A stretch of DNA of 64,000 nt from Dehalococcoidia bacterium (GCA_965197415.1 OZ240207.1:2197853-2261852); one strand, 5' to 3'. Positions 1,097-24,025 are shown, counted from the first letter of the stretch. Translations and numbers: made by a program. Notes: generated by a model not told the origin, from the letters alone.

Positions 1097-3604
1097 CTAG
1101 CTGGGATCGGCGCCGACGGCTTCCATGAACTTTGTGGCGGCGGAAGCCAGTGGGGCATGGTCGGGGGCCTGGAGGTCGGGGTCTTCGTCCAGGAGCCTGG
1201 CGGCCTCGGTGCGGGCGGACTGGAGAAGGTCCCTGTCTGAAGGACGGGCCACCCGCAGATCGGGGAGCCCGCTCTGGCGGGTGCCAAAGGCGTCGCCGGG
1301 GCCTCTAATTTCCAGATCAACCTCGGCCAGCCGGAACCCGTCATGGATGCGTTCGACTGCCGCGAGACGCTGGTTTGCGTCAGCAGTCGAGACGTCGGCG
1401 AGCAGCAGGCAGTAGCTCTTGTGCTCGCCACGACCCACACGCCCCCGGAACTGGTGCAGCTGGGCTACCCCAAACCTGTGGGCCGCCTCCACCAGCATGA
1501 CCGTTGCGTTGGGAACGTCTATACCCACCTCCACCACGGCAGTAGACACTAGGACGTCTGTCTCGCCGTCTCGAAACTTGGACATGACCTGTTCCTTCTG
1601 CCGCGAACTCATCTTGCCGTGGAGCAGGTCCACCCGCAGGTCGGGGAAGACCTCAGTGGCCAGGCGTTCGTATTCCGCCGTGGCCGCCCGTGCCTCCACG
1701 GCTTCCGACTCCTCTATAAGCGGGCATACCACGAAGGCTTGACGCCCGTTCTTGACCTCTTTACGAACGAAGCCGTAGGCGCCGTCTCTCCGTTCCTCCG
1801 GGACTCGGCGGGTCATGATTTCCTGGCGGCCTGGCGGAAGCTCGTCCAGGGTGGACACGTCCAGGTCTCCATAGAGAGTCAAGGCCAGAGTACGGGGAAT
1901 GGGAGTCGCCGACAATGCAATCAGGTGAGGGCTTATCTCCCCCTTCTGCCTTAAAGCCGCCCTCTGCATGACCCCGAACCTGTGCTGCTCGTCCACCACC
2001 GCCAAGGCCAGCTTGGGAAGGTCCACACCCTGCTGGATAATGGCGTGGGTGCCCACCAGGATGTCCAGGCTGCCCTCCGCCGCCTTCTTCCTGAGGGTCC
2101 GCTTGGTGGAAGCCTTGACGCTTCCGGTCATAAGCCCCACGGTCACGGGCCTGGGGAATCCGTCCAACTCTACGCCAATCAGGTTTTCGCTCTCCTCCGA
2201 CAACGCGAGGCCGCCCAGCAGTTTGGTCACCGTGGCGAAATGCTGCTCGGCCAACACTTCGGTTGGGGCCATAATGGAGCCTTGGAAGCCGCTGGCAGCG
2301 GCGGCGAGAAGAGCAGCTAGAGCCACCACCGTCTTGCCGCTGCCCACGTCCCCCTGCAGGAGCCTGTTCATGGGTGGAGCGGCGTTGCGCATGTCATTCA
2401 TTACTTCAGTCACACACCGTTCCTGAGCCTTGGTCAGCGGGAAGGGCAGGGAGCCAAAGAACCCGCCAAGCATCCCCGGCGGCGGGGCGACCGATACGCC
2501 GTCTGCCTGTTCCTGCCAGGACTTCCGGCGGGTGAGCAATACCAGTTGCATCATGAAAAGCTCGTCGAAGGCTAGCCGCTTTCGGGCCGATTCGAAAGCG
2601 GCCATATCCGGCGGGTAGTGGGCTTGGCGCAAGGCCGCATGGAGCGGTTGCAGCTTTAGTCGCTTGTTGATCTCTTCGGGCAAAGGGTCTTCCAGCAGGT
2701 GGGACCACTCCTCCAAAGCCTGCCATACTATGGTCCGGATTCGCCGGGGAGTCAGCCCATCCGTGGAGGGGTAGACGGGGACGAGCCTCCCGGTGTGAAT
2801 TGACACGTCACCTCGGTCGAGTATCTCGAATTCGGGGGAGTTGAACTGACGTTGGCCCTTGAAGATGTCCACCTTGCCGCTGACTGCGATCCTGGTATTG
2901 GGCTTCAACGTGCGGGCAAGGTATGGCTGCCCGAACCACACGGCGCGGATGTTGCCCGTTTCGTCGGACAACACGGCCTCAGCAGCTTTCAGCTTACGGC
3001 CTAGCGAGGTCTCCCTGGCCTCCCAGACCGTGGCGATTACGGTCTGCTCCACACCCGGGACCAGCCCACTGATTTTGGCCGTCGTGGCGAAGTCGTTGTG
3101 CCTACGGGGCATGAGGAACAGCAGGTCTCTGATGGTGGAGACGCCAATACGCTTCAGCTTTGCCGAGAGCTTTACGTCGACACCCCGCAGCCTGCTTGCG
3201 GGGGAGTCCAGTCCCAACCCGACTGCCCCTATAACATCCGAGCGCATCGGGTCCGGCTCGGCGCCGGGTTCCCTATAAGGGGGCTGCGGAGTCGTGGGAG
3301 TTCTAGGGGCTTTAGGCTCCGGGGCGGCGCCGTTCAGCTTGGCCAGCCAGCCCTCCACCCATGCCTTGCGTTTTGCCTTGGACAGACGGGAATAGGAGCC
3401 GTTGGGCGGCTTCTTTCCCCAAAGGGCGGGGAGGTCGTCGGCCCAGTGTTTGAGGAAGAGGTCCATGCCGCCTCCGACGGCTTTGTCGTCAAAACTCCGG
3501 CTTACCTCCAGCAGGAGGATTTTCCGGAAGGTTTCAGCGTCGAGACCAGCCATGTCAGTGGACGTCGGAAGGGGAGACCAACCCCACGTCCACCGTCTCC
3601 GCAC
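1097..3604 (-). CDS. recG: ATP-dependent DNA helicase RecG (true start possibly MAGLD at 3553)
   Basis: Walker A GDVGSGKT, DEQHRFGV box, wedge-domain region and RGRVGRG motif VI. About 130 aa of extra N-terminal sequence precede the usual RecG start. Confidence 0.9.
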   Translation of the reverse strand: MRRRWTWGWSPLPTSTDMAGLDAETFRKILLLEVSRSFDDKAVGGGMDLFLKHWADDLPALWGKKPPNGSYSRLSKAKRKAWVEGWLAKLNGAAPEPKAPRTPTTPQPPYREPGAEPDPMRSDVIGAVGLGLDSPASRLRGVDVKLSAKLKRIGVSTIRDLLFLMPRRHNDFATTAKISGLVPGVEQTVIATVWEARETSLGRKLKAAEAVLSDETGNIRAVWFGQPYLARTLKPNTRIAVSGKVDIFKGQRQFNSPEFEILDRGDVSIHTGRLVPVYPSTDGLTPRRIRTIVWQALEEWSHLLEDPLPEEINKRLKLQPLHAALRQAHYPPDMAAFESARKRLAFDELFMMQLVLLTRRKSWQEQADGVSVAPPPGMLGGFFGSLPFPLTKAQERCVTEVMNDMRNAAPPMNRLLQGDVGSGKTVVALAALLAAAASGFQGSIMAPTEVLAEQHFATVTKLLGGLALSEESENLIGVELDGFPRPVTVGLMTGSVKASTKRTLRKKAAEGSLDILVGTHAIIQQGVDLPKLALAVVDEQHRFGVMQRAALRQKGEISPHLIALSATPIPRTLALTLYGDLDVSTLDELPPGRQEIMTRRVPEERRDGAYGFVRKEVKNGRQAFVVCPLIEESEAVEARAATAEYERLATEVFPDLRVDLLHGKMSSRQKEQVMSKFRDGETDVLVSTAVVEVGIDVPNATVMLVEAAHRFGVAQLHQFRGRVGRGEHKSYCLLLADVSTADANQRLAAVERIHDGFRLAEVDLEIRGPGDAFGTRQSGLPDLRVARPSDRDLLQSARTEAARLLDEDPDLQAPDHAPLASAATKFMEAVGADPS

Positions 3605-7905: not shown

Positions 7906-9141
7906 TTATACTCCCTCGGACCCCGTCGTCTCCCGCCGCACCTGGGCCTGGTTGCGCACAGGCAAACCGTAAATGGCTATGAACCCTTCGGCGGACTTGT
8001 GGTCGAATGCGTCAGCCCGGTCGTAGGTGGCCAAGCCGTAGTTGTAGAGGGAGTTGGGAGACTTGCGGCCAACGACGGTGCACGTCCCCTTGTGGAAGCG
8101 CATCCGCACGGTCCCGTCCACCACTCGCTGTGTGGACTCGACGTATGCATCCATGTCCCGACGGTGCTGGGTGAACCATAGGCCGTTGTACACGACGTCG
8201 GCATACTCCTGGGCGATTCGGGCTTTCAGGCGAAGCTGCTCCTTGCCCAGGGTTATTGCTTCCAACCCCTTATGGGCCGTGTGGAGCGCCACCGCCGCGG
8301 GGGACTCGTAGACCTCCCTTGACTTAATGCCCACCAGCCTGTTCTCCACGTGGTCGATGCGCCCGACGCCATGCTCGCCCGCCGTCCGGTTCAGATGCCA
8401 GACCAGGTCCACCCCCTGCATCTCCTCACCGTCCACCGACACGGGCAAGCCTTCCCTGAAGCCAATCACCACGTAGGCAGGTTCGTCGGGTGTCTCGGAG
8501 ACGGGCTTTGTCCATTCGTAAGCCGCTTCCGGGGGCTCAGCCCAGGGGTCTTCCAGGTCTCCCGCCTCGATGCTACGGCCCCAGAGGTTTTCGTCGGTGG
8601 AGTAGGGACCTTTTCCGGTGGGAACCGGAATGTCCCGCTGGCGGGCGTACTCTATCTCTTCCTCCCGGCTCATGCCCCAATCGCGAATGGGAGCTATCAC
8701 TCTCAGGTCGGGAGCCAACGCTGCCACGCCCACGTCAAGCCTGACCTGGTCGTTGCCCTTGCCCGTGCAGCCGTGGGCCACAGCCGTGGCACCCACCTGC
8801 CGGGCCGCTTTCACGAGATGACGCGCTATAAGGGGCCTGCCCAAGGCCGTGGCCAGAGGGTATTGCTCCTCGTATATTGCTCCGGCTCGGAGGGCGGGGC
8901 AGATGTAGTCGCTGTAGAACTCGTCCTTCGCGTCGGCGACCAAGGCGTCAACAGCCCCTATCTGAAGGGCTTTCTCCCTGACGGGACCCAGGTCCACCAT
9001 CCCCAAGTCGACGGTAAAGGTGACGATGTCGGAACCGTACTCCTCCTTGAGCCAGCGGACTGCCACAGAGGTGTCCAGGCCGCCGCTGTAGGCGAGAACT
9101 ATCTTGTCGGGCTTGTCGGGTTTGTCGGACTTATCGGCCAT
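7906..9141 (-). CDS. argG: Argininosuccinate synthase
   Basis: AYSGGLDTS P-loop-like motif and the GCTGKGNDQVR block. Confidence 0.95.
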   Translation of the reverse strand: MADKSDKPDKPDKIVLAYSGGLDTSVAVRWLKEEYGSDIVTFTVDLGMVDLGPVREKALQIGAVDALVADAKDEFYSDYICPALRAGAIYEEQYPLATALGRPLIARHLVKAARQVGATAVAHGCTGKGNDQVRLDVGVAALAPDLRVIAPIRDWGMSREEEIEYARQRDIPVPTGKGPYSTDENLWGRSIEAGDLEDPWAEPPEAAYEWTKPVSETPDEPAYVVIGFREGLPVSVDGEEMQGVDLVWHLNRTAGEHGVGRIDHVENRLVGIKSREVYESPAAVALHTAHKGLEAITLGKEQLRLKARIAQEYADVVYNGLWFTQHRRDMDAYVESTQRVVDGTVRMRFHKGTCTVVGRKSPNSLYNYGLATYDRADAFDHKSAEGFIAIYGLPVRNQAQVRRETTGSEGV

Positions 9142-15488: not shown

Positions 15489-15764
15489 ATGGCCCAGGGA
15501 ACCCGGCAAGGCGTCAAAGTGGCTGTCCGATTCTTTGCCCTCTACAGAGAACGGGCGGGCCGGACTTCCATGCCCCTGGAGCTTCCCGAAAACTCCACAG
15601 TGGGCGACCTGATTGCCCACGTGCGCGACATCTTCCCACAGCTTGCCCCGCCCGACGTGGACATCGTGGCGGCGGTAAACGCCGAGTACGTCGAGGGGAG
15701 CACGGTGTTGCACCAAGGAGATGAAGTGGCCCTCATTCCCCCCGTAAGCGGAGGTCAGCCATGA
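15489..15764 (+). CDS. moaD: MoaD/ThiS-family sulfur-carrier protein with a 2-residue tail after the GG
   Basis: Ubiquitin-like size. It ends ...ALIPPVSGGQP and overlaps the moaE start by 4 nt. Confidence 0.7.
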   Translation: MAQGTRQGVKVAVRFFALYRERAGRTSMPLELPENSTVGDLIAHVRDIFPQLAPPDVDIVAAVNAEYVEGSTVLHQGDEVALIPPVSGGQP

Positions 15765-16213
15765 TTACAGTGACCCGCGAACCGCTGGACCCTGAACAAA
15801 TCACCGCCCTGATGCGGAAGGACTCCAACGGAGCGGTGGTCACCTTTCTGGGCGTCACCCGGAACCACGCCGACGGCAGGCAGGTGCTTGGGCTGGAGTA
15901 CGAGGCCTACGAGGAGATGGCGGTCAATGAGCTGGAAAAGGTCCGGCTCGAAGTCCTGGCCAAGTACGGCATAGAGGACATGGCCATATCCCACCGCATA
16001 GGCAAGGTGGACATCGGCCAAATCAGCCTGGTGGTGGCGACGGCTTCACCACACCGCAAAGAAGCGTTCCACGCCTGCCACGAGGCCGTGGACCTGCTCA
16101 AGGAGCGGGTCCCCATCTGGAAAAAGGAACATTTCGAGGACGGCGAGGCCCGCTGGGTGGCCTGCGAGTCCCACGAACACGCCCCGTCCCCCCAGCCCAT
16201 ACAGGCGGAGTAG
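15761..16213 (+). CDS. moaE: Molybdopterin synthase catalytic subunit
   Basis: GAVVTFLGVTRN..., SHRIG...GQISLVVA.ASPHRKEAF and PIWKKE blocks. Confidence 0.85.
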   Translation: MITVTREPLDPEQITALMRKDSNGAVVTFLGVTRNHADGRQVLGLEYEAYEEMAVNELEKVRLEVLAKYGIEDMAISHRIGKVDIGQISLVVATASPHRKEAFHACHEAVDLLKERVPIWKKEHFEDGEARWVACESHEHAPSPQPIQAE

Positions 16214-16255
16214 GGCATTACGGCTTCCTTCCTCTCTTAGCACCCACTTGGAAAC

Positions 16256-19200
16256 ATGCCAAGAACAACCGCCCAACTGACGAAAGCCGTTGAAGACTAC
16301 CTTACCTATCTCCGCGTAATACGGGCGTCGGGAGGGGGCACCAATGAACTTTCCTACTACCCCCCACTGACCAACTTGCTGGATGCCGTGGGCGGCACAC
16401 TCAAACCTAAAGTGTTCTGCGTCAGCCAACTGGCGCAGCAGGGCGCAGGCCACCCCGACTTTGGCCTGTATGGCGCCAAGCAGGTGCAAAAGGGCCAACC
16501 CAAGGCCGGGCAGCTTCCGGAGCGCGGCGTGGTCGAGGTGAAGTCCGCCGGCGACGACGCCTGGCTCACCGCCGACAGCGAGCAGGTCAGCAAGTATTGG
16601 AACAAATACCGGCTTGTGCTGGTCACCAACACCCGCGACTTCGTTCTCTTGGGAGAGGATGCGACTGGCCAGCCCGTCAAGCTGGAGACCTTCCGGCTCG
16701 CGGAGTCCGAGGAAGCGTTCGAGTCCCGGCTGGAAAAACCCCGCGCTTTTGCAAAGGACGTGGGTCCCGGTCTGGGAGAATACCTGTGCCGTGCGCTGAC
16801 CCAACAAGCATCCATTGCCGAGCCAAAGGACCTGGCATGGCTGCTGGCCTCATATGCCAGAGACGGGCTGGCACGGGTGGAAGCCGCAGGGGACGCGTCA
16901 TCCCTCAACACCGTAAGGTCCGCGTTGGAAGAGGCCTTGGGTGTACGTTTCGAAGGCGAACGCGGCGCGGCGTTCTTCCGGTCGACGCTAGTGCAGACTC
17001 TCTTCTATGGCATCTTCTCCGCATGGGTTCTCTGGGCGCGGCAGACGCCGCCGCCAACCAGCTCCTTCAACTGGCACGACGCTGCCTGGCATCTCCGCGT
17101 CCCCGTACTACAGGCGTTGTTCCAGCAGGTATCATCCCCCAGCCAGTTGCAGCCCCTGGGGTTGGTGGAAGTTCTGGACTGGGCGGCTGCAGCCCTGGAC
17201 CGCGTAGACCGCACCGCCTTCTTCGACAAGTTCAACGAGGGCGAGGCAGTTCCGTACTTCTACGAGCCCTTCCTGGAAGCGTTCGACCCTGAGCTGCGCA
17301 AGCAGCTTGGAGTCTGGTACACGCCTCCTGAGATAGTGCGTTACATGGTCGCCCGCGTAGACAAGGCCCTGAAAGACGATCTCGAAATCCCCGATGGGCT
17401 GGCAGCGGAGAACGTCTACGTCCTGGACCCCTGCTGCGGCACCGGCGCCTACCTGGCAGAGGTCCTGCGACGCATCGCAGCCAACCTGAAGGGGCACGGC
17501 CTGGGAGCGCTGGCCGGGGCAAAGGTGAAACAGGCCGCCACTGAACGGGTTTTTGGGTTCGAAATCATGCCCGCCCCCTTCGTGGTAGCCCATCTACAAG
17601 TTGGCTTGACGATGCAAGACCTTGACGCGCCGCTGTCTGAAGACGGCGCCGAACGGGCAGGAATATTCCTCACCAACGCGCTCACCGGCTGGGAGCCGAC
17701 GGTGCAGAAGCCTCTGCCGTTCCCGGAGCTCGAAGAGGAGCGCGACCGCGCCGAGCGGGTGAAGCAGGACACCCCAGTCCTGGTCATTCTGGGCAATCCG
17801 CCCTACAACGGCTTCGCGGGCATGGCAGTGGAAGAGGAGCGAGAGCTTTCGACAGCTTATCGAACAACCAAACAAGTGCGTCGGCCGGAAGGGCAGGGGC
17901 TGAACGACCTCTACGTCCGGTTCTTCCGTATGGCGGAGCGGCGCATCGCTGAAAAGACTGGCCGAGGAGTGGTCTGCTTTATCTCGAACTATTCGTGGTT
18001 GGACGGGCTTTCATTTACGGGCATGAGAGAGCGCTACCTGGAGGCGTTCGACGAAATACGCATCGACTGTCTCAACGGAGACAAGTACAAGACCGGCAAG
18101 ACGACACCGGACGGCGCCCCGGACCCCAGCATCTTTTCGACGCCGGAGGACCCGGTAGGCATCCAGGTCGGGACAGCAATCACGACGCTGGTGCGGAAGG
18201 CTGACCACTCGCCCTCGGAGACAGTCGGTTTTCGGCATCTGTGGGGTCAAGCCAAACGTGAGGAGCTTACCGTAACAGCTGAAACCGAGCCAGCCGCACT
18301 CTACGACAGCTTCGAGGCGAACCTAGCTCTCGGACTGCCCTTCACAAAAATGGAGGTCAATGACGCTTGGCAAGACTGGCCGTCGCTGACTGACCTATTT
18401 CCGGTATCGTTTCCAGGCGTTAAGAGTGGCCGTGACCCATTTGTCGTCGATATCGACCTCGACAGCCTGAAAGTTCGCATGACGGATTATTTCAACTCTA
18501 ACCTGAGCCATCAGGAAATCGAACGCAGGTACCGAACCGCCATGCGTAACCCCAGAGAGTACGACTCCCGTGGAGTGCGTGACGCCCTACTCAAGCACGG
18601 CGGTCCCACTAAGCTGGGGTTTATCCGTTACGCATACCGCCCCTTCGACAACCGATGGCTCTATTGGGAGCCCAGAGAGAAATTGGTGGATCGTCCGCGA
18701 GTCGACTACAAGCCGCATGTGTTCGACGGGAACTTGTGGATGGTTACACAGCAGAAACCGCGTCGGGAATGGTCGTGTCCGCAAGTGATTTCGAGTATCG
18801 GGTGCATCGATCTCATGGACCGCAGTGCTACTTGTATTTCGGCCTGGCTCCGGGATGAAGGACTAGGACTCGACAGCGACCGCGCCGGTCGTCGTCCTAA
18901 CCTATCGGAGGCCGCCCAGCACTACCTCAACTACCTTGGCCTCGGCGTAGAAGATTTGTTCCACCACGTCCTGGCTGTGCTGCACGACCCCTCCTACCGC
19001 GAGGCCAACGCCGGGGCACTAAGGATGGAGTGGCCTCGCATCCCGCTGCCAGGCTGGCCCGACGGCGACAGGGAAGGCGCAGCGGAGGAGCTTGCCGCAT
19101 CCGCTGCTCGCGGTCGCAAGCTGGCGGCGCTGCTTGACTCGGAGAAGCCCGTTCCGGGCGTCACGGAAGGCACTCTGCGCCCAGACATCGCCGCGATTGC

Positions 19201-19582
19201 TGTGCCGTCCACCTCCGACGGCGGCAACATGTCCGGCAACGACTTCGCACTGACGGCGGGCTGGGGCCATTTCGGGCAGGGAGAGGCGGTCATGCCGGGC
19301 CAAGGCCGGGTCGTCGAACGTCCCTACACCACAAACGAGCGAACCGCCTTGGGCGAAACCATACAGACTCTCGGCGACACGACGTTCGACGTTTACCTGA
19401 ACGACCGCGCCTACTGGCGCAACGTCCCAGCCGCCGTCTGGAGCTACAAGCTGGGCGGATACCAGGTCCTCAAAAAGTGGCTGTCGTATCGGGAAGACAA
19501 GGTCCTGAGTAGGGCACTAAAGCCGGAGGAAGTGCAGCACTTCACCGACACAGCGCGGCGGATAGGGGCGATCTTACGATGA
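16256..19582 (+). CDS. Single-chain Type IIG (MmeI-like) restriction endonuclease / N6-adenine DNA methyltransferase candidate
   Basis: N-terminal PD..ExK-like signature (HPDF at 16451-16462, VEVK at 16532-16543, then YRLVLVTNTRDFVLL). Methyltransferase motif IV GNPPY (NPPY at 17795-17806). The C-terminal region contains YKLGGYQVLKKWLSYRE. No helicase module is present. Confidence 0.7.
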   Translation: MPRTTAQLTKAVEDYLTYLRVIRASGGGTNELSYYPPLTNLLDAVGGTLKPKVFCVSQLAQQGAGHPDFGLYGAKQVQKGQPKAGQLPERGVVEVKSAGDDAWLTADSEQVSKYWNKYRLVLVTNTRDFVLLGEDATGQPVKLETFRLAESEEAFESRLEKPRAFAKDVGPGLGEYLCRALTQQASIAEPKDLAWLLASYARDGLARVEAAGDASSLNTVRSALEEALGVRFEGERGAAFFRSTLVQTLFYGIFSAWVLWARQTPPPTSSFNWHDAAWHLRVPVLQALFQQVSSPSQLQPLGLVEVLDWAAAALDRVDRTAFFDKFNEGEAVPYFYEPFLEAFDPELRKQLGVWYTPPEIVRYMVARVDKALKDDLEIPDGLAAENVYVLDPCCGTGAYLAEVLRRIAANLKGHGLGALAGAKVKQAATERVFGFEIMPAPFVVAHLQVGLTMQDLDAPLSEDGAERAGIFLTNALTGWEPTVQKPLPFPELEEERDRAERVKQDTPVLVILGNPPYNGFAGMAVEEERELSTAYRTTKQVRRPEGQGLNDLYVRFFRMAERRIAEKTGRGVVCFISNYSWLDGLSFTGMRERYLEAFDEIRIDCLNGDKYKTGKTTPDGAPDPSIFSTPEDPVGIQVGTAITTLVRKADHSPSETVGFRHLWGQAKREELTVTAETEPAALYDSFEANLALGLPFTKMEVNDAWQDWPSLTDLFPVSFPGVKSGRDPFVVDIDLDSLKVRMTDYFNSNLSHQEIERRYRTAMRNPREYDSRGVRDALLKHGGPTKLGFIRYAYRPFDNRWLYWEPREKLVDRPRVDYKPHVFDGNLWMVTQQKPRREWSCPQVISSIGCIDLMDRSATCISAWLRDEGLGLDSDRAGRRPNLSEAAQHYLNYLGLGVEDLFHHVLAVLHDPSYREANAGALRMEWPRIPLPGWPDGDREGAAEELAASAARGRKLAALLDSEKPVPGVTEGTLRPDIAAIAVPSTSDGGNMSGNDFALTAGWGHFGQGEAVMPGQGRVVERPYTTNERTALGETIQTLGDTTFDVYLNDRAYWRNVPAAVWSYKLGGYQVLKKWLSYREDKVLSRALKPEEVQHFTDTARRIGAILR

Positions 19583-20433
19583 CGATCCGTTCAAATCACG
19601 GAATTTTGACCGAGATGTGCGATCTCGTCATAGACTTCCTGAACGAAAAAGGATTGGACCTCAAAGACGATTCCTTTTTCGCACAGGAGGTTGGCAAGAT
19701 CCAGTCGCCGGAAAGGCGTGAGTGGCTCAAGACGTACTTATCTGAGAACGCTTATTTTCTATTACATGGCATCGTTAACCTGGCGTATTCGTTGGATTTC
19801 ATCCTATCCCAACGCAATCGTGCAATCGTATCAATAAGTGGGCAGGTTCTGCTCCGAACCATACTAGAATATAGTGGCAAACTAACCTATCTTGCTGACC
19901 CTGAGATTAGTCCTAATCAGCGAATCAAGCGGGCCCTTAAGACATACTATACTGACCTTGACGAATACGAACGTCTACTTCCGGAGCTTAAAGCGGAGCC
20001 TAGCCAGAACCTAAAGGAGTTCGCTCAGGAATGGTATGCAGAAGTAGCTGAAGGCAAAGAACTGAAGCGGTACAGAGGACCACGGAGCATCTTTGACTCG
20101 ATTGGTGACCCGGAGTTCGAGGAATGGCCTATAGATAGAACCGGAAAATCTGTAAATCCAGTATACGCTCTGGGTTACCAAGTAAACTCTACGATCACAC
20201 ATGGCAACCTTTGGGCAATAAAGCACTATGGATTGACTCATGTTAACAAGTCAGGCGGCATAACTACGGCGTTGCCGGGTTTGGATGCAGACGGAATACT
20301 TTCTCTCCAAAGAGCAGCGGCTACCGTGCTCCAGTTATCATTTGGCTTTGCAGTCCAGTTCATGCACGGTCGTCTCCCTTCGGGCGTCATGAATAGGCTG
20401 GGAGCCCGTATCCAATCGCTCACGAATTCTTGA
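19579..20433 (+). CDS. Hypothetical protein (284 aa), translationally coupled to the RM candidate
   Basis: Long clean ORF. An ATGA stop/start overlap lies at 19579-19582. It is visibly more A/T-rich than its neighbour and I recognise no motif with confidence. Confidence 0.65.
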   Translation: MTIRSNHGILTEMCDLVIDFLNEKGLDLKDDSFFAQEVGKIQSPERREWLKTYLSENAYFLLHGIVNLAYSLDFILSQRNRAIVSISGQVLLRTILEYSGKLTYLADPEISPNQRIKRALKTYYTDLDEYERLLPELKAEPSQNLKEFAQEWYAEVAEGKELKRYRGPRSIFDSIGDPEFEEWPIDRTGKSVNPVYALGYQVNSTITHGNLWAIKHYGLTHVNKSGGITTALPGLDADGILSLQRAAATVLQLSFGFAVQFMHGRLPSGVMNRLGARIQSLTNS

Positions 20434-20506
20434 GTCCGATTATCCGTACAGTGGACCGGTTCCGCAGCGGAAGGATGCATCTGTGTATCTGTCTACGGGA
20501 CAGAAC

Positions 20507-20532
20507 ATCGGTTAGTATAATCGGTTAGTATA
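20507..20532 (+). promoter_or_regulatory. Tandem 13-bp repeat (ATCGGTTAGTATA x2) creating TAGTATAAT, a possible -10 element
   Basis: Two exact adjacent copies were read. The junction gives TATAAT about 40 nt upstream of the GTG at 20566. Confidence 0.35.
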
Positions 20533-20565
20533 AGATGTATAGAGCGTAAAGAGAGGTCTGTACCT

Positions 20566-20922
20566 GTGGGAACATTCAAGTGGCCGTTGCGGATTTCCAG
20601 CATGGACGGCCAGCATGTCAGGGAGATAGAAGCGACGGTGGACACCGGCGCCGCCTACACCACGTTGCCAACCCGTCTGCTGCGTGAACTGGGGGTGACA
20701 CCGATGGGCAAGCGCAGGTTTCTGTTGGCCGACGGGCGGCGGATTGAGATGGACTACGGGGAGGCCCGGGCGACCGTCGACGGCGAGAGTGTGACGACTC
20801 TAGTGGTCTTTGGGGAAGACGACGCCCCACCCCTGCTGGGGGCCTATACACTGGAAGGTCTGGCCTTGGCGGTGGACCCGGTGGAGCAGCGATTGGTCCC
20901 AACTCACCTCATCATGTACTAG
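20566..20922 (+). CDS. Retropepsin-like (clan AA) aspartyl protease, single domain
   Basis: 118 aa with a GTG start. It has the VDTGA catalytic triplet context (ATVDTGAAYTTLP) and a size typical of homodimeric retropepsin-like proteins. Confidence 0.65.
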   Translation: MGTFKWPLRISSMDGQHVREIEATVDTGAAYTTLPTRLLRELGVTPMGKRRFLLADGRRIEMDYGEARATVDGESVTTLVVFGEDDAPPLLGAYTLEGLALAVDPVEQRLVPTHLIMY

Positions 20923-21034
20923 ATGTATTAGGACCGGCTCCGCTCTTGGGCCATACCTGACCATGATGTCGCAAGCAGCATCTAGCAGCCCTTGAAATTC
21001 GGGTTTCATAGGTGCATAATTATTGATGTCAGTC

Positions 21035-21151
21035 CCTTGGCGGTTTTAGCGGTGCGGACCCACCCGTTCCCATCCCGAACACGGAAGTGAAACGCTCCAG
21101 CGCTCACGATACTGCTCCGGCGACGGAGTGGGAAAATAGGCCACTGCCGGG
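21035..21151 (+). rRNA. rrf: 5S ribosomal RNA (isolated copy)
   Basis: CCCACCCGTTCCCATCCCGAACACGGAAGTGAAACGCTCCAGCGC...GGGAAAATAGGCCACTGCCGGGG. The terminal helix pairs CCTTGGCGG with CCACTGCCGGGG, and a T-rich run follows. Confidence 0.9.
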
Positions 21152-21327
21152 GGGCTTTTCTTTTGTAGACAACCCGGCAAATTTTACCGCTCTCAGGCCT
21201 GGAATTGCCGCCCTCGAACCCTTCCATTTGGGGTTTAGGTGTGATAAAGTTATAGCGTTCTCATCGATTGTTAAATAATTCACATACTCACTGCCTCTGA
21301 ACACCGTAGAAAAGAAACCTCGGAACC

Positions 21328-21357
21328 TTTACACCAATCGCGTAAGCGACCTATAAT
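21328..21357 (+). promoter_or_regulatory. Sigma-70-like promoter candidate upstream of clpC (TTTACA - 18 nt - TATAAT)
   Basis: The hexamers were read directly. This would give a leader of about 160 nt containing a hairpin at 21427-21447. Confidence 0.35.
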
Positions 21358-21523
21358 GGGAACATCTAAGCCCCGACGATTGATAAGGAGTTCCCGGGGT
21401 TTCCGCTTGATGTTCCCACGATACGTATAAAGGGCCTTGCGCCCTTTACAATGAGGGTTCACGGGTAGGCTTCAGGAATGACCGTGCCGGAAGGCCAACC
21501 GGCGTAATGAGGGGGTACCTAAA

Positions 21524-24025
21524 ATGGGCAGCAGATTCGAAAAGTTTTCGGAGCGTGCACGCCGGGTCCTCTCCCTGGCCCAGGAAGAGGCCCAAAGGTT
21601 CAACCACAACTACATCGGCACCGAGCACATATTGCTGGGACTGGTGCGTGAAACCGAAGGTGTAGCCGCCCGAGTCCTCTCCAACCTGGGAGTGGACTTG
21701 AGCAAGGTCCGCTCCGCGGTGGAGTTCATCATCGGTCGCGGGGAACGGCCCGCCCAGGGCGAGATAGGTCTGACCCCCAGGGCCAAGAAGGTTGTGGAAC
21801 TGGCGGTGGACGAAGCCCGCCGCATGAACCACACCTACATCGGCACCGAACACCTGCTCATCGGCCTCCTCCGGGAGGGCGAAGGTGTGGCCGCCGGAGT
21901 CCTGGAAAGCCTCAGCGTAACCCTGGACAAGGTGCGCTCCGAGACCCACAGAATCCTCAGCCAGAGTTCTCCCCAGTCGTCTTCCGGCGGATACGGCGCT
22001 AAAAGCTCAACGCGGACCCCCACGCTGGACCAGCTGGGCATCGACCTCACCAAGGCCGCCAGGGACAAGAAACTGGACCCGGTGGTGGGCCGCGACCAGG
22101 AAATCCAGCGGGTCATCCAGATACTCAGCCGCAGGACCAAGAACAATCCCGTGCTGATGGGCGAACCCGGAGTCGGCAAGACTGCCATAGTGGAAGCCCT
22201 GGCACAGCGAATCTCCACGAACGACATTCCAATCACTCTCCAGGACAAGCGCCTGGTCACCCTGGACATGGGCGCCCTGGTTGCGGGCACCAAGTACCGG
22301 GGCGAGTTCGAAGAGCGCCTCAAGAAAGTCGTGGAAGAAATCAAAAACTCTGGCAATTGTGTGCTGTTCATCGACGAGATGCACACCATCGTCGGAGCCG
22401 GAGCCGCCGAAGGGGCAGTGGACGCGGCCAACATCCTGAAGCCTTCGCTGGCCCGCGGAGAGCTACAGTGCATCGGCGCCACCACCATGGACGACTACAG
22501 GAAGCACGTGGAGAGGGACCCCGCCCTCGAACGCCGCTTCCAACCAGTAGTCGTATCCGAGCCCTCGGTGGACGAAACCGTGAGCATCCTTCATGGCATC
22601 AAAGGCCAGTACGAGATACACCACGACTTGACCATATCCGACGACGCGATATCGGCCGCGGCCAGTCTGGCCTCCCGCTTCATCGCCGACCGGTTTCTGC
22701 CCGACAAGGCCATAGACCTGATGGACGAGGCGTCTTCCAGGGTTCGGCTAAGGAACGCCTCTACTCCCCTCTCCGTGCAACAGTCCGAGATGGTGCTGGA
22801 GAACGTGCGGAAAGAGAAGGACGACGCCATAGCCGCTCAGCAGTACGAACATGCGGCTGAACTCCGGGAGAGGGAACTCCGTCTGCTGGAGAGCCTGGAA
22901 AACGACAAAAAAGAGTGGCACGACGAGCTGGGCAGCAACAAGCCCGTGGTCGGCGCCGAGGACATAGCTGAAGTGGTGAGCATGTGGACCGGCATACCCG
23001 TCACCCGGCTGGCCATGGAAGAGACCGAACGATTGCTGCACATGGAGCAGGAAGTCCACAAGAGGATCATCGGACAGGAAGAGGCCATCGTCAACGTATC
23101 CAAGGCGGTGCGCAGGGCCCGCGCCGGGCTAAAGGACCCGAGGCATCCCATAGGCGTGTTCCTGTTCCTGGGACCCACGGGAGTGGGGAAGACCGAGTTG
23201 GTCCGCGCACTGTCGGAGTTCATGTTTGGCAGCGAAGACTCAATGATTCGTCTGGATATGTCCGAGTTCCAGGAGCGGCACACCGTCGCCCGGCTCATCG
23301 GCGCCCCTCCGGGATATATCGGCTACGACGAGGGCGGCCAGCTTACGGAAGCTGTCCGGAGGAAGTCCTACAGCGCCATTCTTCTGGACGAAATCGAGAA
23401 GGCCCACCCCGAGGTGTTCAACGTCCTGCTGCAAATCTTCGACGACGGACATCTGAGCGACGCCAAGGGCCGCAAGGTGGACTTCCGCAACTCCATCATC
23501 GTGATGACCAGCAACCTGGGCTCCGACCTGATAAAGAGGGAGACCGCGCTGGGCTTCTCCATCAAGACGGACCAGGCGCAGTCGGACAAACAACAGTATG
23601 AGCGCATGAAGGACAAGGTGCTGGACGAGGTGAAGCGCTTCTTCAGGCCCGAGTTCCTGAACCGTATCGACGCCACCGTCGTCTTCCACTCTCTGGCTGA
23701 AGAACACATAGTCTCCATAGTGGACCTAATGATGGAACAGGTCAGGTCCGAGTTGAAGGAGAAGGATATCGGCCTTGAGACCACCCAGGCGGCCAAAGAG
23801 TGGCTGGCGGAACACGGCTACGACCCCAACTTCGGCGCAAGGCCGTTGCGCCGGCTTATCCAGGACACAGTCGAGGACAAGCTGTCCGAGGAGCTGCTGT
23901 CAGGGAAAATGGTCGCGGGAGACGTGGCGATTGTGGATGTCGAGGACGACGAGACGGTGATAAGGGTGAAGGGAAAAGAGGAAGCGGAGGACGTAGAAGA
24001 GGTGGCGGCTCTGCCCTCCGCCTGA
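21524..24025 (+). CDS. clpC: ATP-dependent Clp protease ATP-binding subunit ClpC
   Basis: Double Clp-N repeat, two AAA+ modules (GEPGVGKT and GPTGVGKT) and a UVR-like linker ([13 protein letters not shown]). Confidence 0.95.

Follow-up and report, generated by a model that had tools for sequence, protein, structure and literature searches.

A predicted single-chain restriction–modification enzyme of the DrdII/DrdV lineage and two probable cargo genes in a Dehalococcoidia genome

We analysed a three-gene locus within a 64,000-nucleotide stretch of DNA from a Dehalococcoidia bacterium (GCA_965197415.1, OZ240207.1:2197853-2261852), hereafter the window. Three genes lie in a row on its plus strand: open reading frame 1 (ORF1; 16256-19582, 1108 aa), a predicted single-chain Type IIG/IIL restriction–modification (RM) enzyme resembling DrdII and DrdV; ORF2 (19579-20433, 284 aa), a compositionally foreign, predicted all-alpha protein distantly related to DUF5677; and ORF3 (20566-20922, 118 aa), a predicted stand-alone clan AA (retropepsin-like) aspartic protease. 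The reading we favour, with a probability of about 0.55, is that ORF1 is an autonomous RM enzyme of the DrdII/DrdV lineage and that ORF2 and ORF3 are optional cargo, not subunits. The domain anatomy, homology, conservation and distribution described below are observed in the sequences; enzymatic activity, co-transcription and any defence role of ORF2 or ORF3 are inferred.

Results

Domain organization and relatives of ORF1

ORF1 is predicted to be a Type IIG/IIL enzyme with nuclease, methylase and target recognition domain (TRD) in a single chain. A putative N-terminal PD-(D/E)xK nuclease domain (16256-16705, plus strand, residues ~1-150) is followed by a helical connector (16706-17245, plus strand, residues ~151-330), both with approximate boundaries. 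AlphaFold2 (AF2) placed the helices of the connector between residues 152 and 327, with a predicted local distance difference test score (pLDDT) mostly of 64-88. Beyond it lies a gamma-class N6-adenine methyltransferase domain (17246-18355, plus strand), which was matched by the Pfam families N6_Mtase and Eco57I and contains motif I (LDPCCGTGAY, 17423-17452) and motif IV (NPPY, 17795-17806). The chain ends in a C-terminal TRD (18392-19525, plus strand, residues 713-1090), which was matched by Pfam Type_ISP_C (E 1.6e-42) and includes the peptide YKLGGYQVLKKWLSYRE. No helicase or ATPase family (DEAD, ResIII, Helicase_C) was detected in ORF1 with Pfam; the Type ISP gene of another locus discussed below (L005) does show them.

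The PADLOC model REase_MTase_IIG matched ORF1 with E values of 6.6e-94 and 1.7e-74, the second match spanning residues 15-935. BLASTP aligned ORF1 end to end (residues 15-1085, 34% identity, E 7e-157) with RM.DrdII, which is named as an RM enzyme in REBASE. A profile built from 30 ORF1-family sequences matched DrdV (PDB 7lo5) over the methylase and TRD with an E value of 2.1e-56, and the same profile matched LlaBIII (E 4e-45) and LlaGI (E 7e-43). The ORF1 TRD aligned with the TRDs of DrdV, LlaGI and LlaBIII, and the NPPY motif paired with the DrdV segment IIGNPPYRA; N448 and Y451 of DrdV touch the flipped adenine.

Conservation was examined in sets of 30-36 homologues sharing 46-79% identity. 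D391, P392, C393 and G395-T396-G397 of motif I (LDPCCGTG, residues 390-397) and N514-Y517 of motif IV were invariant in 30 homologues, and the C-terminal segment W1075-L-S-Y-R1079 was likewise invariant. Given this invariance, the predicted motifs are not chance matches. Comparison with the sister locus L093 gave a ratio of nonsynonymous to synonymous substitution rates (dN/dS) of 0.11 for ORF1, indicating purifying selection.

A first-pass annotation of the window had read ORF1 as nuclease, methylase and TRD in one chain without a translocase, an order supported by the Pfam, PADLOC and DrdII/DrdV matches. It had also called the enzyme MmeI-like, which holds for the domain order and fails for the family, since the MmeI_Mtase match was sub-threshold and the relatives found are RM.DrdII and DrdV. 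The short motifs on which it had relied were all located where it placed them, namely HPDF (H66-F69, 16451-16462), VEVK (V93-K96, 16532-16543) and NPPY (N514-Y517, 17795-17806), and both of the longer peptides it had quoted, YRLVLVTNTRDFVLL and YKLGGYQVLKKWLSYRE, occur in the ORF1 translation. The coordinates it gave for ORF1, ORF2 and ORF3 were also confirmed, as was the neighbouring 5S rRNA gene.

The putative N-terminal nuclease

Evidence for the nuclease came mainly from conservation. E31, P67-D68 (16454-16459), E94-x-K96 (16535-16543), Q110 and T124-N125, the residues expected to form the nuclease motifs, were invariant in 36 ORF1 homologues. The N-terminus was colinear with that of RM.DrdII, with which it shares the PD and TN..(D/E)F motifs; the ExK segment was gapped in this alignment. 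The first 80 positions of the profile also aligned weakly but colinearly with DrdV residues 4-76 (2.9 bits), pairing GGxTxE and PD. The predicted alpha-beta-beta-beta-alpha-beta order of secondary structure fits a nuclease domain, with a core that AF2 modelled at low confidence. Neither the first 335 residues by themselves nor a profile of this region built from 36 sequences retrieved any PDB sequence, even at an E value of 10.

Distribution of the ORF1 family

ORF1 had 307 relatives in public metagenome contigs. We retrieved the best 80 together with their flanks; these were 48-78% identical and mostly full length. None of these 80 RM loci contained an ORF2 homologue by tblastn, and an ORF3-like gene was detected by tblastn in only one of them, weakly (L080). 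No neighbouring gene family was found at more than 6 of the 80 loci. A same-strand ORF started between -60 and +80 nt from the RM stop codon in 42 of the 69 loci with enough downstream sequence. These 42 tightly placed ORFs fell into 32 unrelated clusters, several with an ATGA overlap, and none matched the ORF2 profile (hmmsearch --max). The clusters included pentapeptide-repeat, HNH, ApeA/HEPN, AAA_21/AAA_15, nSTAND, UbiD and plain metabolic genes. The absence of ORF2 from all 80 loci, combined with such a variable next gene, argues that the enzyme needs no partner.

The family also occurs on plasmids. PLSDB contained 15 near full-length ORF1 homologues (tblastn), the best of which (55% identity) were from Rhizobium rhizogenes and Sphingomonas; annotated plasmid homologues carried the Prokaryotic Genome Annotation Pipeline name 'type ISP restriction/modification enzyme', reflecting Type_ISP_C. 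On R. rhizogenes plasmid pC6.5b (L101, 203-10904) the 55% identical RM homologue lies downstream of a helix-turn-helix regulator, a reverse transcriptase and a UvrD helicase and upstream of DUF5131 and TcmP genes; on this Ti/Ri-type plasmid the arrangement has the look of a compact defence island. Full-length alphaproteobacterial plasmid copies were 35-56% identical to ORF1, and N-terminal fragments 73-74% identical to its first 340 residues were present in metagenome-assembled genomes (MAGs) of Alpha- and Gammaproteobacteria. The RM gene has thus evidently crossed phylum boundaries recently, as judged from these identities; ORF2 relatives, by contrast, were found in Chloroflexota MAGs. Taken together, the RM family is apparently a solitary, horizontally mobile gene, often in defence-island-like surroundings.

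When the N-terminal third of ORF1 served as query, all proteins retrieved were 340-594 aa long, mostly from long-read ENA assemblies, and the 1108-aa protein of the window was absent from the results. We take these short matches to reflect either an effect of length on the search or gene calls split by frameshifts (as at L011 and L012, described below), not biology.

A pentapeptide-repeat gene was the next gene after the RM gene at three loci (L013, 5301-6413; L057, 9219-10208; L084, 2483-4036) and overlapped the RM stop codon by ATGA at the first two. The pentapeptide-repeat fold acts by DNA mimicry in Qnr and MfpA, and such a mimic might serve to regulate a restriction enzyme to which it is coupled.

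Separate divergence of the three genes and persistence of ORF2

The sister locus L093, a close relative with the same order of RM gene, ORF2, ORF3, 5S rRNA gene and clpC, allowed the divergence of each gene to be compared, with the reservation that L093 is a contig of 2x coverage in which some differences may be sequencing errors. The synonymous divergence (dS) was 0.56 for ORF1, 0.21 for both ORF2 and ORF3 and 0.13 for clpC, and nucleotide identity followed the same order (85.8% for ORF1, 91-92% for ORF2 and ORF3, 97.0% for clpC). Because dS is unequal within the locus, ORF1 has had a history different from that of ORF2 and ORF3. The roughly four-fold spread over 7 kb (16256-23100) suggests that recombination has replaced the RM allele.

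At three loci ORF2 follows a damaged RM gene. At L011 the RM gene is interrupted by an insertion sequence (IS) and frameshifted, and ORF2 is full length. At L012 the RM gene is spread over three frames. At L007 it is reduced to its last 31 codons, nucleotide homology to the window beginning 51 nt before the ORF2 start codon, and ORF2 is again full length. In the pair L007-L011, in which the RM gene is destroyed, ORF2 dN/dS was 0.28, the same as in pairs that retain the enzyme. ORF2 therefore persists under unchanged purifying selection after RM loss.

The ORF2 family

A search of 5.8 billion proteins found 25 ORF2 homologues, and an ORF2 profile searched against 1.84 billion cluster representatives returned 66 at 50% identity, 29 at E < 1e-30. 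Matches in genome collections were MAGs of Dehalococcoidia and Caldilineaceae. No relatives were found in IMG/VR viral contigs, JGI metagenome contigs or PLSDB plasmids. Pairwise dN/dS within the family was 0.18-0.33, indicating that ORF2 is a real, constrained gene, and the family alignment contained 21 invariant columns, among them R93, Y98, R115, R118, D126, S204 and H208.

AF2 modelled ORF2 as an all-alpha protein of ten helices (pLDDT 85; predicted template modelling score 0.83). Foldseek searches of the PDB and BFVD with this model gave no match with E < 0.08, the top matches being generic helical bundles and G protein-coupled receptors, and the ORF2 profile matched nothing among PDB sequences. 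Searches of PADLOC, NCBIfam and PHROG with ORF2 were also negative. A DUF5677 (PF18928) core spanning approximately residues 85-219 was matched by 18 of 20 family members and by 5 of the 10 distant relatives scanned. Family scores were 19-25 bits against a gathering threshold of 27.1 (19.4 for ORF2 itself; best member E 9.7e-5), and ORF2 is by this measure a predicted distant relative of DUF5677, not a member. The one experiment on DUF5677 found in our searches comes from a preprint (PMC12632615). The domain was a candidate there because it was significantly enriched in contigs associated with serine recombinases and because co-transcription with the recombinase gene was predicted; the ORF tested did not figure among the genes protective against six E. 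faecalis phages.

We considered a HEPN ribonuclease-like assignment for ORF2 and rejected it: the invariant columns contain no Rx4-6H motif, and neither an ATPase nor a HEPN family was matched. ORF2 also has no P-loop. One family member gave a stray match to Cas13-ApeA (E 0.028). The ORF2 homologue at L006 (P0015) carries a 60-residue N-terminal extension (8001-8183) beginning MTLFGYIRTSRHLQ, which by eye looks like the start of a serine recombinase; it had no Pfam match, and a Resolvase gene (2610-3173) lies 5 kb upstream.

ORF2 differs from its surroundings in composition. Its GC content was 0.478 and its GC content at third codon positions 0.505, compared with 0.60-0.63 and 0.68-0.83 for its neighbours, including ORF1 and ORF3. 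ORF2 homologues were 7-20 GC points below their flanks in 11 of 11 loci, in hosts with GC contents of 0.53-0.67. This suggests either repeated recent transfer of the family or an intrinsic compositional constraint.

ORF3

ORF3 had been proposed to be a retropepsin-like protease, and the searches agreed: Pfam Asp_protease_2 (PF13650) scored 27.9 bits against a cutoff of 24.3, and the catalytic D26-T27-G28 (20641-20649) was present and invariant in 5 homologues. TIGR03698 was sub-threshold (49 bits against a cutoff of 57) and was the only NCBIfam match; no match was obtained in PADLOC or PHROG. The protein has the size of a retropepsin monomer (about 100-130 aa) and its gene has a host-like GC content of 0.63. 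No relatives were found in IMG/VR viral contigs. Besides the window, ORF3 accompanies ORF2 at L093, L094 and L006 only, and is absent from L001-5, L007-12 and L095-99.

Gene arrangement and the 5S rRNA gene

The ORF1 stop codon and ORF2 start codon share the sequence ATGA, an overlap also kept between the RM gene and ORF2 at L093. ORF2 and ORF3 are separated by a 132-bp spacer containing a 13-bp perfect tandem duplication (ATCGGTTAGTATA x2.1; 20507-20533, no strand assigned; Tandem Repeats Finder score 54). The duplication lies 33 bp 5' of the GTG start codon of ORF3 and includes a TATAAT-like hexamer. L093 contains one diverged copy of the unit, so that the duplication in the window is recent and strain-specific.

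Upstream of ORF1 are moaD and moaE; downstream of ORF3 is a 5S rRNA gene (21036-21152, Rfam 87 bits), followed by clpC, a DUF429 gene and radA. The 5S gene stands alone, as no 16S or 23S gene was found by Rfam in the 64-kb window. A promoter-like site of its own (TTGAAA-17-CATAAT, 20992-21020) precedes it, and T-rich sequence follows directly past its 3' end. The order ORF3-5S-clpC is retained at L093, where the 5S gene is 97.5% identical. No separate S, R or M gene was found beside ORF1, whose neighbours are MoaE, ORF2 and ORF3. A search of 15700-21600 for flanking repeats or insertion scars found only chance-level repeats, and among the loci fetched the flanking genes of the window were matched at none other than L093.

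Discussion

How such a locus would operate can be sketched by analogy with DrdV. The C-terminal TRD of ORF1 would read an asymmetric site, the NPPY domain would methylate one adenine on one strand, and the putative N-terminal PD-(D/E)xK domain would cut unmodified DNA once several site-bound molecules have assembled. The enzyme would work without an ATPase or a partner protein. ORF2 and ORF3 would then fill a variable slot behind the RM gene, one that elsewhere holds many unrelated genes, several of them of defence type. Here ORF2 would presumably share a transcript with ORF1 and probably be coupled to it in translation, yet would be separately mobile and under its own selection; its function would most likely be independent, either accessory or a second line of a defence type. 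ORF3, which goes with ORF2 in some lineages, would be a small aspartic protease acting as a dimer.

Several observations weigh against the view of an autonomous enzyme with optional cargo. With regard to the nuclease, AF2 modelled residues 1-335 from an alignment that was shallow (67-89% identity), reaching a pLDDT of 67 overall and of 23-55 in the core, and Foldseek with this poor model ranked DrdV first with an E value of only 0.026 and a template modelling score of 0.21, a match that we do not count towards the fold. The remaining observations come from the genomic contexts of ORF2, of which approximately 15 independent ones were inspected. ORF2 lies immediately behind an ORF1-family gene in the window and at L093, L011, L012 and L007, in genomic surroundings that differ. 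At L006 ORF2 and an intact ORF1-family gene (74% identity) converge, and an ORF3 homologue lies at a distance of 2 kb. At L094 it lies directly behind an unrelated large Eco57I-type N6-adenine methylase (motifs DFACGTG and NPPF; likeness to ORF1 only E 2.7e-4) and is followed by an ORF3 homologue, ORF2 and ORF3 being 54% and 66% identical to those of the window. At L005 the distance to a Type ISP gene is 4.8 kb, and the island there also contains HEPN, ParA and IS genes.

In all, 7 of the ~15 contexts have ORF2 within 5 kb of a large gene for an N6-adenine methylase or RM enzyme, with three families represented. As a rough estimate, a random gene would lie that close to such an enzyme ~1-2% of the time, and by this comparison the adjacency, in which at least three or four associations are independent of one another, is not due to chance. 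Together with the ATGA overlap, it is as compatible with a functional link as with a common insertion or defence-island niche. The system idea of the first-pass annotation would have fallen had homologues of the downstream genes never occurred with such enzymes; those of ORF2 do occur near N6-adenine methylase/RM genes, and of three families. No such enzyme was found within 8-10 kb of ORF2 at L001/L095, L002-4, L008-10, L096, L097 or L098/99. These enzyme-free contexts are often beside transposases or PIN toxin-antitoxin genes, and the copy at L098/99 is truncated by an IS. One of them (L002, 10063-12871) is an IS-rich variable region in which a tandem-duplicated 106-aa ORF, an ISAZ013-type transposase and an NYN-domain gene lie beside the ORF2 homologue.

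These contexts raise the possibility that ORF2 and the RM enzyme function as partners, ORF2 being either a guard or abortive-infection effector that fires when a phage blocks or evades restriction, or a modulator of self-toxicity. We consider this a tentative alternative, possible but doubtful. The adjacency recurs with three methylase/RM families and in two gene orientations, the start/stop overlap is shared by the window and L093, and the RM-ORF2 pair is found in differing surroundings, so that it has been moved or kept as a unit. The invariant residues of ORF2, many of them polar or aromatic, are compatible with an active site. Set against this are the complete absence of ORF2 from the 80 RM-family loci, the lack of such an enzyme in about half of the ORF2 contexts and the survival of ORF2, intact and equally constrained, where the RM gene has been lost. 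The protein itself has neither a P-loop nor a canonical Rx4-6H motif and no PADLOC or fold match, and the DUF5677 ORF tested against six E. faecalis phages was not protective (PMC12632615). The broader proposal that the ORF2 family is an undescribed accessory partner of Type IIL, Eco57I-like and Type ISP enzymes, sometimes with a retropepsin-like protease, is in our judgement similarly speculative.

Alternatively, ORF2 and ORF3 might form a two-gene module of their own, for instance an effector that a protease processes or activates, or a pair resembling a toxin and antitoxin, and this module would merely land beside RM genes. The order of the two genes is kept in the window, at L093 and also at L094, behind a different methylase and before different downstream genes, and at L006 an ORF3 homologue is 2 kb from ORF2; their equal dS of 0.21 between the window and L093, unlike the 0.56 of ORF1, also favours this reading. 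Most ORF2 loci, however, lack ORF3, and the two genes differ in GC content (0.63 for ORF3 and 0.48 for ORF2) and are separated by 132 bp. We regard such a module as improbable.

The first-pass annotation had suggested that all three genes might constitute a defence locus, and an obligate three-component system is, on the distribution found, very unlikely. The gene order is conserved at L093 and the three families co-occur at L006, but the full trio with an ORF1-family enzyme was seen only in the lineage of the window and, rearranged, at L006. Across the 80 loci the RM gene stands by itself (0/80 with ORF2; a weak ORF3-like gene at L080 only), ORF2 stands alone in about half of its contexts and outlives RM loss, and each gene is found without the others. 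The three-gene combination is lineage-restricted and is no established system; it had been put forward as new to the annotator, and our literature searches likewise turned up no description of it. Finally, that ORF1 is an orphan methylase with an N-terminal domain inactive as a nuclease, as the lack of a PDB match for the N-terminal profile, the poor AF2 core and the ExK gap in the DrdII alignment might imply, is highly improbable given the invariance of E31, P67-D68, E94-x-K96 and Q110 at 46-79% identity, the homology of the N-terminus to RM.DrdII, the PADLOC Type IIG match over residues 15-935 and strong purifying selection.

An autonomous ORF1 with optional cargo adds a member of unpredicted specificity to a well-characterized and widespread family of single-chain RM enzymes. 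Our literature searches found no account of a DUF5677-like gene recurrently lodged behind three kinds of methylase/RM genes. If this recurrence reflected function and not a shared niche, ORF2 would represent a new kind of add-on to restriction systems and would give a first functional handle on DUF5677-like proteins.

Comparison with known systems

RM.DrdII is a Type IIG enzyme from plasmid pDrdII of Deinococcus wulumuqiensis NEB 479 that recognizes GAACCA with N6-methyladenine modification, and its gene has been cloned and matched to this motif (PMC6430315). It resembles ORF1 in length (1102 versus 1108 aa), and motif I, NPPY and a C-terminal LGGY.VLKKW are present in both. The likeness extends to its being a solitary RM gene; RM.DrdII differs in having no ORF2-like or ORF3-like neighbours. 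At 34% identity the recognition sequence of ORF1 would certainly differ from that of DrdII, and would not be predictable from it.

DrdV (PDB 7lo5/7lvv), a Type IIL enzyme solved by cryo-electron microscopy, was the best solved-structure match of ORF1. It has the order nuclease, helical connector, methylase and TRD, and its methylase-TRD module shares its origin with that of Type ISP enzymes (bioRxiv 10.1101/2021.01.06.425610). ORF1 has the same domain order and both lack an ATPase; the N-terminal similarity between the two is insignificant when taken alone. MmeI, the prototype of Type IIL, is also a single chain with this domain order. ORF1 is unlike it in sequence: MmeI_Mtase scored 20 bits against a cutoff of 27, the MmeI_N, helicase-like spacer, TRD and C-terminal domain families gave no match, and MmeI was absent from the PDB sequence matches of ORF1 at E <= 0.01.

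LlaGI and LlaBIII, which belong to Type ISP, have a methylase-TRD module homologous to that of ORF1. Assignment of ORF1 to Type ISP itself was rejected because it lacks the Mrr-type nuclease, superfamily 2 ATPase and coupler and, at 1108 aa compared with 1400-1600 aa, falls short of them by some 400-500 residues; ORF1 is therefore not a translocating enzyme. Assignment as PglX of bacteriophage exclusion (BREX) or MAD2 of the methylation-associated defence system (MADS) was rejected as well, with scores of 10.6 versus 400 bits for NF033451 and 23 versus 720 for NF047738, and no partner genes in the flanks.

For ORF2 the closest precedent is PrrC-EcoprrI, in which a small abortive-infection gene, also found elsewhere, is embedded in an RM operon. 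ORF2 differs from the RM-linked anticodon nucleases PrrC and RloC, which combine an N-terminal ABC-type ATPase with a C-terminal HEPN nuclease, in having neither an ATPase domain nor a recognizable HEPN or other nuclease motif. It resembles PrrC in being a small extra gene in an RM operon, and PrrC thereby offers a conceptual model for a possible guard role.

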